From SAR116 cluster bacterium AG-447-C21 (GTDB lineage: Bacteria; Pseudomonadota; Alphaproteobacteria; Thalassobaculales; Thalassobaculaceae), in NCBI GenBank assembly GCA_003212315.1, contig QCQB01000010.1, positions 1,486-65,485 on the forward strand: DNA of 64,000 nt. Direction: 5' to 3'. Positions within the stretch are counted from its first letter, which is position 1; each line of letters opens with the position of its first letter. Under the pieces are notes generated by a model. That model was not told where the DNA came from. It saw only the letters and a program-made list of their open reading frames with translations, and searched no databases. Made by a program: the position numbers and the translations under genes. Shown one piece after another: positions 1 through 12,434 of the stretch.

Positions 1-1414
1 AAAAAGGCATAGGATAGATTCCCATCAAAAGAATCAAGCCAATTAAAGGTGACAATACCCCTAAATCCCGAAGGGACAAATCTCTCATGTTAATTGTATT
101 GTGGTTCAGAATTTTGCCAAACAAAACACGTTTGTATACGCATAGCAAGCAAGTAAGTAATAGCATAAAAAGCGCAAAAACAGTTATCAAAGTAAGGAAA
201 CTGTGTTCAATCACTCCAAGAATTATTGAAAGGTTTGCGATAAAACTTGCAGTTCCGGGAACCCCTATAACGGCCAATAAAATAAACACATGTATTATCA
301 AAAACGTTGGAATACCATTCATCAAGTGACCGGGCTCCGCCTTGAGGCGATCGCTAAAAATTTTTATACAAATTATTAGACCAGCCCCTATAAAACTATG
401 ACTCAACATCGCAAAAACACCACCCCGTATCCCGTGTTCACTCAAACTAAATACTCCAATCGTTATCAATCCCATTTGAAAAATTAGTATTAACAAGACA
501 AAACTTTTAAAGTTCTTATAAATCATCAAAATAATTACGGCATACACAGCTATCACTATTGCGAAAACTAACATGTAGGGCGCGAAAAGATTGGTCGCAA
601 CTGGAAAAAGGGGAATGGAAAAACGCAAAAAACCATACACGCCTATCTTGGTCGAAATACAGGTGAGCATAATAAGTGTTCCTATTTCACCATCCTCCTG
701 TTGACTCAGAATTCTTTTATGAAAAGGAAACAACGTCATAATAGTCATAAACGGTATAAAAAAAGCGATAAAAAGCCAGATCTGGTTATTCCTCGAAAAA
801 TTGGCATTGTTGAGAATTATTAAATCAGTAGTATTTTTTGATTCGTAAATAAATAGAACTGCCCCCAAGAGTGGAATAAACATGAGAAAAATATTAATAC
901 CAAAATTGAAAAACGCATGATGTCTGCTATTTTTATTCCACATACCAACCATCAGATGCAAAGGTATAGATGCAGCGATCACAAAACAGGCAAAGAGAAA
1001 AACATCTAAAGCACAAAAACTTCCTATTAATGTAGTTTCTAAAACTAGCAATACGATCATATGCTCTCGCACACGGCTTTTTATGCTTTTCCAGGTAGCA
1101 AAAATACAGATTGGCGTTAAGAGTGCTGCGCAAATTATCAAAAACATTGAAATACCATCTATGCCCAATTGATATTTAATACCAATATTCGAAATCCACG
1201 ACGCCTCTTCTAACATTTGAAAACCGCTACGACTGCGATCAAAATTCACCCAAATAAGAAGGGATACGATTAATGTTGGGATAGTGGTCCATAATGCTAG
1301 ATGCCGACAGCTTCTGCCAACAGCTTCATCTTCACCACGGGTCAACATGATGAAGAAGCATCCAGCCAGTGGAAGAAATGTCACTATAGATAATACTGGC
1401 CAATCATTTGTCAT
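1..1414 (-). CDS. NuoM/ND4-like antiporter-type membrane subunit, divergent; C-terminus runs off the left window edge
   Basis: Not in the supplied ORF track because there is no stop inside the window. I hand-translated the minus strand from ATG (1414) down to nt 2 and found 471 codons with no stop. The N-terminus is MTNDWPVLSIVTFLPLAGCFF. Segments ALWTT, GFQMLEEASWI, GIDGISMFLI, VLETTLIGSFCALD, KIGVYGFLRFSIPLFP and MLSHSF resemble alphaproteobacterial NuoM. The gene starts 10 nt after the NuoL-like stop. Confidence 0.8.
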   Translation of the reverse strand, partial: MTNDWPVLSIVTFLPLAGCFFIMLTRGEDEAVGRSCRHLALWTTIPTLIVSLLIWVNFDRSRSGFQMLEEASWISNIGIKYQLGIDGISMFLIICAALLTPICIFATWKSIKSRVREHMIVLLVLETTLIGSFCALDVFLFACFVIAASIPLHLMVGMWNKNSRHHAFFNFGINIFLMFIPLLGAVLFIYESKNTTDLIILNNANFSRNNQIWLFIAFFIPFMTIMTLFPFHKRILSQQEDGEIGTLIMLTCISTKIGVYGFLRFSIPLFPVATNLFAPYMLVFAIVIAVYAVIILMIYKNFKSFVLLILIFQMGLITIGVFSLSEHGIRGGVFAMLSHSFIGAGLIICIKIFSDRLKAEPGHLMNGIPTFLIIHVFILLAVIGVPGTASFIANLSIILGVIEHSFLTLITVFALFMLLLTCLLCVYKRVLFGKILNHNTINMRDLSLRDLGVLSPLIGLILLMGIYPMPF

Positions 1415-1424
1415 AGCGTTAGCC

Positions 1425-3344
1425 CTATAAAGAGTAACAATGATATAAAATGAATACGATACTCCCAAATAGCATCGCGGTACCGTAATAGCTGATAAAC
1501 TGATGTTTAGTGCCAGTAAACAGGATTTTTATTTGTTTGATATTTTTATGCAAACTGCATTGGCACAATAAACCCGATATGACGGAATAAAGTTCATTAT
1601 AAGATCGGAGATGAGTACGAGAGACAGCATATGATATAACCATCTTATAGAGTTTGTCATAAGGGTTTTTAGCACGACTTCTCGCCAATAACGTTTGGCA
1701 ATTGTCAAGTAAACCAATCCGTAACTCCGGTTTTAAAACATATAAAAAATAAGCTATCACTACCCCACAGAAAAAACTGATGACTAGAGGAACATTAAAT
1801 CTTGTTAATTTTTCTATGTTTTTCCAATCTGTCTCTAGTCTCATTGGACTTGGGATAACGTTGCCCCAAAATGTAGAAGAAATATCTCCAAATACAGTAT
1901 TAAACCCTATCATTCCTGCAAATAAAGTAAGAAAGCTTAAGAAGATTAATTTAACTTTAAATACCCAAGAGACTTTATTTATTTTTGTCTTTACCTCCTT
2001 TTTGTTTCCATGTGCCTTGCGCCAAATAATAAATAAAATCTTGAACCCAAGGAAAGCTGTCATAGCAATCACTAGTAAACTGGCGTAAAACACAAAAGTA
2101 CCAATCGAGGTATTTTGGCGCAGCGATGCTTCTAATATTATTATTCCTGAATAATATGCAGATAAAAATGGAAATCCGGTTAAACTCAACACCCCTAGAC
2201 TGGCTGAAATATAGAAAATAGGCGGCCAGTTCTTGTACTCTACCGGTTGTCCTTTAACAATATTGGAAAAAATACACGGGTTTAATGCGCCACTTGAAAC
2301 AAGTAAAAGTGCCACAACAACTATGACGTTTAAGAAATGAAAAACTCCTCCAATGTATGCAGAGGATCCGCAAGCCACAAAAATGTATCCTAATTGGGAA
2401 AAAATTAAACAAAGTATCATGCGTCCCAAGTCATGGCATAATAAAGCCCTAACAAGTAACAGACTAGACACAAGTAGACCAACAATGGAGAGACTGATTA
2501 AAATATTTGGTGTCCGCTCTATCATTGGAGAAAAACGTATCAGAATGAAAACACCCGCCAAGCCCATACTCACCAGATGGATGAAGGTAACTAACGCAGG
2601 ATTGATCAAAGGTTCCTTTATAAACCATCTTTGAAAACTAAGTTGGGCGCATTTTGTAATGGCAGCAAAAATCAACAAAATATTTAAAACAGTTAATGCA
2701 TCTAGACTACTTCCTAAAAGTTCTAATTTAACATTCTGAGTGATAGAGATGACATAAAAGATTTCATCAAATATTATGGTATCATATGATATGTACGCAG
2801 CCACTAAAACAAACAGGAGAGCGAGGTTGCCTACTCGGTCAACAGCAAACATTTTGATTGCCATTGCCCGGGATAAATCCTTCCTTGACGATATTAAGAG
2901 AAGAGAGGAAATGACTCCAATAAGCTCCCATCCCAAATATAATTGCAGGAAATTATTAGCAGATAAAAATAAAAATACTGCGATAGTAAGAACCGGAAAA
3001 TAAAACAGCAAATTTTTGGTATAGCATCCACTAGTTTTTTCCCAAATTAAATGTAGGTGAATAAACATCAATGCTAATGAGAAAATCGATATCATCAACA
3101 GTGTTAAACTATCAAATCTTAATAAATAGTTTGCAACGAAAGAGCCTGTTTTTATCCATGTGATTATCTGGATGCTTTCGAACCCTTGGTTGTAAATCAT
3201 TTCAATCATGCCGCCAAGGCTTAAAGAAAGCATAGCCACCGCGAGTCCACAGCTAACGCCGTGAATGACTCGTCGAGTAAAAAATCGTGACCTCAAGAGA
3301 AAAATCGATGCTAATAATGGAGCAACAAAAATGCATGCATACAT
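1425..3344 (-). CDS. NuoL/ND5-like antiporter-type membrane subunit, divergent
   Basis: 639-aa polytopic ORF. It contains LYLGWELIGVISSLL (cf. GWEGVG), TKCAQLSF, FIHLVSMGLAGVFILIRFSP and FSQLGYIF, plus a C-terminal long helix and final TM (NPYDKLY ... YYGTAMLFGSIVFIL), as in NuoL. Its position in a J-K-L-M gene order supports the call. Confidence 0.8.
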   Translation of the reverse strand: MYACIFVAPLLASIFLLRSRFFTRRVIHGVSCGLAVAMLSLSLGGMIEMIYNQGFESIQIITWIKTGSFVANYLLRFDSLTLLMISIFSLALMFIHLHLIWEKTSGCYTKNLLFYFPVLTIAVFLFLSANNFLQLYLGWELIGVISSLLLISSRKDLSRAMAIKMFAVDRVGNLALLFVLVAAYISYDTIIFDEIFYVISITQNVKLELLGSSLDALTVLNILLIFAAITKCAQLSFQRWFIKEPLINPALVTFIHLVSMGLAGVFILIRFSPMIERTPNILISLSIVGLLVSSLLLVRALLCHDLGRMILCLIFSQLGYIFVACGSSAYIGGVFHFLNVIVVVALLLVSSGALNPCIFSNIVKGQPVEYKNWPPIFYISASLGVLSLTGFPFLSAYYSGIIILEASLRQNTSIGTFVFYASLLVIAMTAFLGFKILFIIWRKAHGNKKEVKTKINKVSWVFKVKLIFLSFLTLFAGMIGFNTVFGDISSTFWGNVIPSPMRLETDWKNIEKLTRFNVPLVISFFCGVVIAYFLYVLKPELRIGLLDNCQTLLARSRAKNPYDKLYKMVISYAVSRTHLRSYNELYSVISGLLCQCSLHKNIKQIKILFTGTKHQFISYYGTAMLFGSIVFILYHCYSL

Positions 3345-3352
3345 CGGTTAAA

Positions 3353-11934: not shown

Positions 11935-12014
11935 TACTCAATTCCTTCATTATGTGTATACGTTTTATAGAACCGTAAATTACCGAAGGATTGACTTGAA
12001 ACGTAAATAGGTTG

Positions 12015-12194
12015 TTAACTGGGCATATCTAAAGGGACAAATGCGACTACAACAAAGGACAAAAACGCCAGAGAACCATACACCCAAGCTCTTTTAACCC
12101 AGCCAGCTTCCTGACTCACCCAGTTTTGACGAAAGACCTTTCCACAATAAATCATGGCAACCAATAAAACCGCCGCCAGCAAAGGATCCAGCAA
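12015..12194 (-). CDS. Possible small two-TM membrane protein (hypothetical; start uncertain, TTG 12194 or ATG 12155)
   Basis: Hand-translated frame, bounded by an in-frame TGA upstream and TAA at 12015-12017: (M)LDPLLAAVLLVAMIYCGKVFRQNWVSQEAGWVKRAWVYGSLAFLSFVVVAFVPLDMPS. It is below the ORF-track length cutoff. I recognise no family. Confidence 0.25.
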   Translation of the reverse strand: MLDPLLAAVLLVAMIYCGKVFRQNWVSQEAGWVKRAWVYGSLAFLSFVVVAFVPLDMPS

Positions 12195-12357
12195 AATGTA
12201 CCTGCCTTCCGATCAGTATATCAATGATATATATAACATATGTGACAAAATTAAATTGACCGATTTTTTGCTCAATATACCTCAAAAAGAGCTAACTAAT
12301 AAAAGTTTAGTTTCGGCACTATTATTTTCAAGATCTTTCGAAAACTAAATCCCAACA

Positions 12358-12434
12358 TGGCGGGAGTGACGGGACTCGAACCCGCGGCCTCCGGCGTGAC
12401 AGGCCGGCGCTCTAACCAACTGAGCTACACCCCC
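12358..12434 (-). tRNA. tRNA-Asp (anticodon GUC)
   Basis: The reverse complement reads GGGGGTGTAGCTCAGTTGGTTAGAGCGCCGGCCTGTCACGCCGGAGGCCGCGGGTTCGAGTCCCGTCACTCCCGCCA. The cloverleaf arms pair, the anticodon loop is CTGTCAC and CCA is encoded. Confidence 0.95.

Follow-up and report, generated by a model that had tools for sequence, protein, structure and literature searches.

What becomes of the membrane-arm genes of complex I when the rest of their operon gives way to a Na+-translocating NADH:quinone oxidoreductase (Na+-NQR)? The question is raised by a 64,000-nucleotide (nt) stretch of DNA, here called the window, from the assembly deposited as SAR116 cluster bacterium AG-447-C21 (GCA_003212315.1, contig QCQB01000010.1, positions 1,486 to 65,485). 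In the window, the Na+-NQR genes nqrA-F lie directly upstream of genes resembling nuoJ, nuoK, nuoL and nuoM. We found that the replacement of nuoA-I by an nqr cassette at the native nuo locus is well supported, that the leftover nuoJKLMN genes are intact and under purifying selection in a marine clade, and that key charged residues have been lost from NuoK, NuoM and NuoL throughout that clade.

An nqr cassette at the native nuo locus

Gene identities were checked with Pfam and NCBIfam hidden Markov models (HMMs), and on recheck the gene order, strands and spacing given in an initial annotation of the window were all correct. Read on the minus strand, the order is tig-clpP-clpX-lon-hupB, tRNA-Val, tRNA-Asp, a small open reading frame (ORF) named orf59, nqrA-F and, after a spacer, nuoJ-K-L-M; nqrM and apbE lie on the plus strand between orf59 and nqrA. 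The leftover nuo genes and the nqr genes are as follows (aa, amino acids; TM, transmembrane helix).

1..1414, minus strand, nuoM-like gene; 5' 471 codons, running past the window edge (PF00361, 78 bits)
1425..3344, minus strand, nuoL-like gene; 639 aa, full length, with its C-terminal lateral-helix and TM16 region (PF00361 alone matched)
3353..3670, minus strand, nuoK-like gene; 105 aa (PF00420, 52.7 bits)
3667..4293, minus strand, nuoJ-like gene; 208 aa from GTG, 194 aa from ATG (PF00499, 39.8 bits)
4294..4495, nqrF-nuoJ spacer, 202 nt
4496..5716, minus strand, nqrF
5730..6338, minus strand, nqrE
6338..6991, minus strand, nqrD
6991..7797, minus strand, nqrC
7781..8989, minus strand, nqrB
8993..10354, minus strand, nqrA
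10638..11675, plus strand, apbE, divergent from nqrA (PF02424, 297 bits)
11710..11934, plus strand, nqrM, divergent from nqrA (PF04400, 30.5 bits, cut-off 22)

The gaps of 10 nt between nuoL and nuoM and of 8 nt between nuoK and nuoL agree with the initial description, as does the 4-nt overlap of nuoJ and nuoK; this overlap holds with a TTG start and shrinks to 1 nt with the ATG start chosen by gene callers. The nuoN gene that had been predicted to follow is present just past the window edge on an overlapping public contig (L001), which matches the window without a difference over 4153 nt and extends through nuoM (492 aa) and a nuoN-like gene (482 aa) into birA and coaX. The remainder of the 64-kb window consists of ordinary housekeeping genes, without any nuo gene.

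The same architecture was found in every locus of a clade whose members are named 'Thalassobaculaceae bacterium', 'Ca. Endolissoclinum sp. TMED55' or 'Rhodospirillaceae bacterium' in NCBI and which represents an uncultured marine Rhodospirillales lineage. It is identical down to 68-69% NuoL identity, a divergence at which the synonymous substitution rate (dS) is about 0.7-0.8, and the downstream order in the clade is nuoJ-N, birA, coaX, rnj, mce and DUF1467. In an exhaustive NuoM profile search, a single 50%-identity representative covers this clade. Ten or more independent assemblies, drawn from NCBI, JGI, ENA/Tara and Logan, span the nqrF-nuoJ junction; it is real and no assembly artefact.

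We next consider what occupies the corresponding site elsewhere. On the upstream side of nqrA-F, the window contains the following features, with clpP and clpX between tig and lon.

12015..12194, minus strand, orf59, a small ORF with two membrane helices, at the upstream edge of the nqr cassette
12358..12434, minus strand, tRNA-Asp(gtc) (ARAGORN and Rfam)
12534..12609, minus strand, tRNA-Val(tac) (ARAGORN and Rfam)
12683..12994, minus strand, hupB
13163..15562, minus strand, lon
17812..19242, minus strand, tig

The initial annotation had stated that a nuo operon follows the lon-hupB-tRNA block in other Alphaproteobacteria. For comparison, a panel of 80 other alphaproteobacterial lon loci was taken from the Lon matches listed, with no clade member within it, and 35 of these had enough sequence to be informative. 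Among these matches that synteny holds: hupB has nuoA within 2 kb in 14 of the 35 loci and within 6 kb in 24, and nqr lies beside hupB in none of them (0/35). The closest canonical relatives (L009, L011, L017, L018, L021, L037 and L074) have exactly the order hupB-tRNA-Val(tac)-tRNA-Asp(gtc)-nuoA; they also share the tRNA-Leu(tag) upstream in the window, and several share a tRNA-His. On the other side, the canonical marine operon of L008 runs nuoA-N, birA, coaX, rnj and DUF1467, a downstream flank that it has in common with the clade. Consistent with the earlier statement that nuoA-I are missing from the window, tblastn found nothing similar to NuoA-I, either in the 64-kb window or in any of the clade loci (E<=10 at the cassette edges and in the spacer), and the gene lists of L002 (a 22-kb locus) and L102 contain no nuoA-I genes. 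Because the upstream and downstream flanks both match those of canonical nuo operons, the in situ replacement first proposed, of nuoA-I by an nqr cassette with apbE and nqrM, is well supported and is placed in the common ancestor of the clade.

In two related marine metagenome-assembled genomes (MAGs), tRNA-Val and tRNA-Asp are separated by an insertion of about 3.7 kb, before a canonical nuoA (L013, 13048..16749; L019, 12916..16635). The tRNA pair adjoining nuoA seems to be an insertion hot spot.

The leftover proteins are diverged NuoJ-N subunits

The four ORFs of the window had been annotated as NuoJ-, NuoK-, NuoL- and NuoM-like, and HMM searches upheld this. Their best NCBIfam matches are Nuo and not Mrp models, and PF00499, PF00420 and PF00361 are matched above the Pfam cut-offs. 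PF00662 and PF06455 were undetectable in the NuoL-like protein by HMM search. The NCBIfam equivalog cut-offs are missed by all four proteins, with 375 versus 585 bits for NuoM, 77 versus 89 for NuoK, 100 versus 154 for NuoJ and 231 versus 556 for the NuoL-like protein (245 versus 407.5 for its subfamily model). Mrp models give at most 63 bits, compared with 245-375 bits for Nuo models, a difference of more than 200 bits. No MrpB/E/F/G partners are encoded between nqrF and birA, where only J-, K-, L-, M- and N-like genes are found. PDB matches of the antiporter-like subunits include MrpA/MrpD; the antiporter-like subunits of complex I and Mrp share ancestry.

All five proteins align over their full length to solved complex I chains, e.g., those of Paracoccus (8qby), and residues 2-636 of the NuoL-like protein align to plant ND5. 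Identity to canonical subunits is 27-42%, versus about 75% between Lon and that of relatives, and the nearest canonical NuoL (P0015) retains all motifs. HMMs, alignments and the native place upstream of birA all point to orthology with the membrane-arm subunits NuoJ, K, L, M and N. Judged by these comparisons, the four ORFs are true but strongly diverged Nuo homologues.

nuoJ-N are intact and under purifying selection

In none of the 18 clade loci is a nuoJ-N gene interrupted; each gene present forms one open frame of full length. To put this into perspective, neutral evolution was simulated at the observed divergence; 39-77 new in-frame stops arose in 1926 codons, and none of 300 runs was free of stops. 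The ratio of nonsynonymous to synonymous substitution rates (dN/dS), estimated by the Nei-Gojobori method, was as follows.

nuoJ-N, per gene: 0.09-0.39
nuoJ-N, concatenated: 0.20-0.26 (bootstrap confidence interval, 0.17-0.30)
nqrA-F: 0.039 (0.015-0.07 for single nqr genes)
birA and coaX: 0.09-0.12
apbE, birA and mce, per gene: 0.10-0.19

In the simulations, dN/dS was 0.80 if only stops were forbidden and 0.38-0.49 if the hydrophobic, polar or charged class of each residue was kept. Since the values of 0.20-0.26 lie below both simulated constraints, the purifying selection on nuoJ-N is residue specific; these genes are not pseudogenes, and the selection on them is about 6-fold weaker than that on Na+-NQR. 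The baseline from canonical operons is weak, as L013/L019 are saturated in dS and L025/L028 give 0.05-0.25.

The guanine-plus-cytosine (GC) content is 35-38% in nuoJ-N and 43-45% in nqr, with about 40% in the genome lineage. Thus, nuoJ-N lie 6-9 points below nqr, and they also lie below birA and coaX, which fits relaxed selection under AT-biased mutation.

Loss of key residues in NuoK, NuoM and NuoL

Residues were surveyed by alignment to the solved complex I chains and by comparison across the clade. The proton relay is formed by what we take to be, in Escherichia coli numbering, Glu36 and Glu72 of NuoK, Glu144, Lys234, Lys265 and Glu407 of NuoM, Glu144, Lys229 and Lys399 of NuoL, and Glu133, Lys217, Lys247 and Lys395 of NuoN. 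The state of the key positions in the leftover proteins is given below.

NuoK: neither carboxylate is kept; the Glu36 equivalent is Gln and the Glu72 equivalent is Ser in every clade member
NuoM: Lys in TM8 is kept; three of four are lost (Glu in TM5 to Ile or Thr, Lys in TM7 to Ile or Met, Glu in TM12 to Asn)
NuoL: Glu in TM5, Lys in TM7, His in TM8 and the first His in TM11 are kept; the second His and the Lys of TM11 (both Val; His338 and Lys342 equivalents) and the Lys-Asp of TM12 are lost
NuoN: Glu in TM5, Lys in TM7, Lys in TM8 and Lys in TM12 are kept in every member; none of the four is lost
NuoJ: the Tyr in TM3 is kept; the adjacent Gly is replaced

These losses are fixed across the clade. 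The position of the TM12 Lys in NuoL varies among Gly, Glu, Val and Leu from member to member and is therefore unconstrained. The 'HxWxPDA' loop of TM7 is altered in all three antiporter-like subunits, and the C-terminal lateral-helix and TM16 region of NuoL is retained. The roles of the relay residues are known from E. coli and Thermus thermophilus complex I, and mutation of Glu36 or Glu72 of NuoK, Glu144 or Lys234 of NuoM, or Lys399 of NuoL abolishes the activity of E. coli complex I. The chain of charges is thus interrupted in NuoK, in NuoM and at the TM12 site of NuoL, and only NuoN has a complete set. Given the known roles of these residues and their observed losses, the lateral proton relay is predicted to be interrupted, so that the remnant would be no working complex I arm. 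As nuoA-I are absent, redox-coupled pumping would be impossible in any case.

A promoter-like element in the nqrF-nuoJ spacer

The spacer between nqrF and nuoJ contains one candidate expression signal.

4374..4410, minus strand, promoter-like element: -35 box TTGACG (4402..4397), 17 nt, -10 box TATAAA (4379..4374)

A block reading ATCTCTTTTTGACG.A, 15 nt and GTATAA is invariant in the six clade members aligned (6/6), including those at only 69% NuoL identity, and the sequences flanking it diverge. According to the initial annotation, the leftover genes might be co-transcribed with nqr. This is possible insofar as no intrinsic terminator was found after nqrF, so read-through from nqr could occur; on the other hand, a promoter-like element that is invariant across the clade lies within the spacer itself. 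We infer that this element acts as a promoter, driving nuoJ-N and probably birA-coaX-rnj as well. Gaps to the downstream genes are short: nuoN and birA lie about 51 nt apart in the clade and 8 nt apart in the canonical L008.

A strong hairpin of 13-15 base pairs (4416..4381) overlaps the promoter-like element in the window. It was rejected as a terminator, as no T-run follows it and the divergent clade members do not preserve its stem. The spacer motif has a second match at 12278..12293, upstream of orf59, which was attributed to chance since it is not conserved in L002.

The Na+-NQR cassette

All six Na+-NQR subunits, NqrA-F, are encoded in order. NqrF matches TIGR01941 with 675 bits (cut-off 295) and NqrA matches NF003759 with 590 bits (cut-off 505); for NqrB, C, D and E, the Pfam families PF02508 (twice), PF04205 and PF03116 are above their cut-offs. 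Both maturation factors, the flavin transferase ApbE (PF02424) and NqrM (PF04400), are encoded as well. Read directly from the translations, NqrB contains SGAT (DGFSGATALG) and NqrC contains AGATLT, which we take to be the attachment motifs for covalent flavin mononucleotide, and NqrF contains the cysteines that are presumably its 2Fe-2S ligands. By gene content this is a complete Na+-NQR operon with its maturation genes, from which Na+ pumping is predicted.

The small orf59, overlooked in the initial annotation, belongs to the nqr cassette. It has no significant match to a Pfam family; it is 95% identical in L002 and 39% identical (E 2e-11) to a 66-aa ORF at the matching place in the SAR116 cassette. 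An ORF of this type (59-66 aa; L092, 8240..8440) accompanies the nqrM-apbE/nqrA-F cassette in two alphaproteobacterial orders and is absent from the copy in L094, and orf59 may be an unrecognised NQR accessory gene. The cassette layout, a small ORF and nqrM-apbE divergent from nqrABCDEF, recurs in the SAR116-type loci L092 and L093, directly upstream of birA, and the divergent nqrM-apbE/nqrA-F arrangement is also found in another alphaproteobacterium at an unrelated site (L094). The nqr cassette therefore recurs as a unit. Outside the clade, the nearest relatives of NqrA come from other marine Alphaproteobacteria, at 63-74% identity; the closest is P0192 (74%), whose contigs stop 171 nt past nqrF. 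The GC content at third codon positions (GC3) of the cassette is slightly higher than that of the flanks.

Two further observations concern single nqr genes. Between the window (5730..7797) and L002 (5556..7006), dS reaches 1.45 in nqrC and 0.98 in nqrD, compared with about 0.40-0.54 in the flanking nqr genes and about 0.3 in nuoJ-N; this excess suggests within-clade recombination or an imported, diverged nqrC-D segment. In a relative that is otherwise 95-100% identical (L089, 2167..3386), nqrF is called as two ORFs of 181 and 195 aa, a split that may be genuine, may reflect a frameshift or may come from a sequencing error.

Remnants and deletions in other lineages

Is the retention of nuoJ-N tied to the adjacent nqr genes? 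A second remnant was found in L104, the MAG GCA_039188535.1 ('Pseudomonadota bacterium', 54% GC; JBCCYZ010000003.1, 6829..12950), where the order is tig-clpP-clpX-lon-hupB-tRNA-Val-tRNA-Asp-orf102-nuoJ(degenerate)-nuoK-nuoL-nuoM-nuoN-birA-rnj-mce. Here nuoA-I have simply been deleted: the locus has no nqr, and a 102-aa membrane ORF (orf102), which is not NuoA-like and has no assigned family, stands in their place. L104 resembles the window in the nuoI|nuoJ breakpoint, the upstream hupB-tRNA-Val-tRNA-Asp, birA after nuoN, and an open but degenerate nuoJ-N; it differs in that nuoJ is barely recognisable, nuoL is N-terminally shortened and all four of NuoK, L, M and N have lost key charges. Its NuoM (P0304) is 50% identical to canonical Hyphomicrobiales NuoM and 35% identical to that of the window, which indicates that the two remnants decayed independently. 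Two independent lineages thus share the nuoI|nuoJ breakpoint, and the nuoI-nuoJ gap of 70 nt is the largest in the L008 operon.

The opposite state is found in the SAR116-type loci L092 and L093 (GC 30.5%), where birA begins 64 nt after nqrF (15838..15901) and no nuo gene lies within 10 kb. Two low-GC SAR116 genera (LGC2-C and LGC2-D) have been described as having replaced nuo with nqr, with nuoL beside nqr (Roda-Garcia et al. 2021, mSystems, PMC8547437). The replacement was therefore not a new idea, as the initial annotation had taken it to be, having already been published for SAR116 together with a leftover nuoL. As L092/L093 lack nuo genes whereas nuoL stands beside nqr in the 2021 paper, different SAR116 genera may represent different stages of remnant loss. 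Because L104 has a remnant without nqr at the locus and the SAR116-type loci have nqr without a remnant, nuoJ-N have been kept more than once when nuoA-I were lost, independently of adjacent nqr, and the remnant is ultimately dispensable.

In the NuoM profile search, several of the next-best matches also lack key charges, P0304 being the best of them. About 10 further 50%-identity representatives of full-length NuoM-like proteins (P0312, P0319, P0330, P0346, P0366, P0382, P0399, P0408, P0424 and P0450) are without Glu in TM5 and/or Lys in TM7 and Glu in TM12, and degenerate NuoM subunits may be widespread.

Possible roles of the nuoJ-N remnant

We propose that in the ancestor of the clade, a mobile nqr cassette (orf59, nqrM-apbE and nqrABCDEF) replaced nuoA-nuoI at the native nuo locus. 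Na+-NQR would have taken over NADH:quinone oxidoreduction, and nuoJKLMN would have stayed put upstream of birA-coaX-rnj. The leftover proteins would be translated and folded under purifying selection, and assembly into a J-K-N-M-L subcomplex, held by the lateral helix of NuoL, is probable because the lateral-helix and TM16 region is conserved. With the relay broken at the Glu residues of NuoK, the Glu/Lys/Glu of NuoM and the TM12 Lys-Asp of NuoL, the subcomplex would be no redox-driven pump arm. Presumably expressed from its own spacer promoter, it may keep a noncanonical role that is structural or is centred on NuoN, the sole subunit with all charges. That the proteins fold, probably form this subcomplex, no longer pump and are kept for a secondary role is the reading that we favour and consider moderately probable. 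Comparison across lineages suggests that the remnant state is long-lived but ultimately dispensable.

Could the genes instead be functionless, held open because stop or frameshift mutations would bring Rho-dependent polarity onto the essential birA-coaX-rnj and because misfolded membrane proteins would be toxic, and thus on a slow route to deletion? Such a course would fit the tight nuoN-birA gaps, the conserved promoter-like element upstream of nuoJ, the nuoI|nuoJ breakpoint in two independent lineages, the open frames of the fully eroded L104, the clean deletion in SAR116-type loci, the weak overlap with canonical constraint described below and a dN/dS about 6-fold that of nqr. However, the dN/dS of nuoJ-N is far below the value simulated with stops only and also below that with residue classes kept, it is similar to those of apbE, birA and mce in the same genomes, and specific charged residues of NuoN and NuoL are invariant across the clade; we regard this course as unlikely. 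An equally doubtful idea is that J-K-N-M-L might form a stand-alone, redox-free, Mrp-like complex remodelled, with polar Gln, Ser and Asn replacing carboxylates of NuoK and NuoM, for ion handling or scaffolding in a respiratory chain based on Na+, a state that would recur in Alphaproteobacteria upon loss of nuoA-I.

The initial annotation had gone further and considered a functional link of an Mrp-like module to the Na+ pump, in which the five proteins would act as a stand-alone cation/proton antiporter that converts between the Na+ gradient and the proton motive force, perhaps with physical or transcriptional coupling to NQR. Indeed, nuoJ adjoins nqrF on the same strand with no terminator between them, all five genes are under purifying selection, the four charges of NuoN and Glu-TM5, Lys-TM7 and His-TM8 of NuoL are kept in every clade member, the changes of NuoK (Glu to Gln and Glu to Ser) and NuoM (Glu to Asn) are polar and fixed rather than random, and the ancestry shared with Mrp is reflected in the PDB matches to MrpA/MrpD. 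Nevertheless, this idea is weakened by the margin of Nuo over Mrp models, by the lack of MrpB/E/F/G equivalents and by the broken lateral relay in NuoK, NuoM and at the variable TM12 site of NuoL. L104, moreover, keeps a remnant without nqr at the locus and with charges lost in NuoN too, and the SAR116-type cassette stands without any remnant, so we hold an antiporter to be less likely still than either of the two preceding possibilities. Finally, the operon might merely be rearranged, with nuoA-I elsewhere in the genome and J-N serving a complete complex I beside NQR, as many bacteria have both enzymes. The clade-wide loss of the equivalents of NuoK Glu36/Glu72, NuoM Glu144/Lys234 and NuoL Lys399, the low identity to canonical subunits compared with that of Lon, and the absence of nuoA-I from the 64-kb window and the 22-kb L002 locus make this very improbable.

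Several points nevertheless weigh against a retained secondary role. Of the near-invariant (>=95%) canonical positions, only 37% in NuoL and 62% in NuoM keep the canonical residue, and conservation within the clade correlates weakly with canonical conservation (rho 0.14-0.15); given these figures, the remaining constraint on nuoJ-N may be largely generic. The class-conservation simulation is crude, and Nei-Gojobori (NG86) estimates are biased in AT-rich membrane genes. The promoter is a consensus match and not a mapped start site. Furthermore, the complete loss of nuo in SAR116-type loci and the total residue erosion in L104 suggest that any residual function is minor.

Significance and comparison with known systems

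The locus represents a natural dissection of complex I, in which the modules for electron input and quinone were lost and the distal, proton-pumping arm has been evolving alone for a long time. Positions that stayed fixed (the charges of NuoN; Glu-TM5, Lys-TM7 and His-TM8 of NuoL; TM16) and those that drifted (Glu of NuoK, the NuoM triad, TM12 Lys of NuoL) separate structural from catalytic constraint, and such a contrast in a natural remnant gives information beyond the reach of mutagenesis. The recurrence of the nuoI|nuoJ breakpoint in at least two lineages points to a modular or transcriptional boundary in the alphaproteobacterial nuo operon. In these marine bacteria, NADH oxidation would be carried by a Na+ pump instead of complex I. 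Since the leftover genes are annotated as 'NADH-quinone oxidoreductase subunit L/M/N', metabolic reconstructions may wrongly score complex I as partly present. The findings are of moderate interest to specialists in complex I and marine bioenergetics and are a warning for automated metabolic reconstruction.

A literature search for nuoJKLMN with nqr, Thalassobaculaceae nqr and complex I replacement by Na+-NQR found nothing. The closest precedent is SAR116. SAR116-type loci resemble the window in having the small ORF with a homologous orf59, the divergent nqrM-apbE and nqrA-F upstream of birA-coaX-rnj; they differ in belonging to another order, in a GC content of about 31% versus 40%, in an NqrA that is 64% identical and in an nqrF that abuts birA without nuo. 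The SAR116 paper (PMC8547437) describes no five-gene remnant, its selection or residue losses, and the genomes of the present clade are not listed in its supplements. What appears to be undescribed is the occurrence of the replacement in this Rhodospirillales clade, along with the remnant of all five genes nuoJKLMN, its combination of purifying selection with loss of catalytic residues, the promoter-like element and the nqr-free case.

Partial nuo operons without nuoEFG are also known, in which truncation occurred at a module boundary and the remaining genes were kept (Spero et al. 2015, PMC4453560). Those operons keep the Q module and the whole membrane arm and use other electron donors, whereas here the peripheral arm, NuoA and NuoH are gone. 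With complex I (NDH-1) itself, the remnant shares orthologous J, K, L, M and N subunits, as judged by HMM, gene order, position and full-length alignment; it lacks NuoA-I and hence the quinone site, the electron input and the NuoH/NuoA part of the E-channel. With the Mrp (Mnh/Pha) antiporters, it shares a stand-alone set of proteins without a redox module, in which MrpA/D correspond to NuoL/M/N, MrpC corresponds to NuoK and a NuoJ-like domain is present; unlike Mrp, the remnant derives secondarily from complex I, and conserved charges are missing in two of its three antiporter-like subunits.

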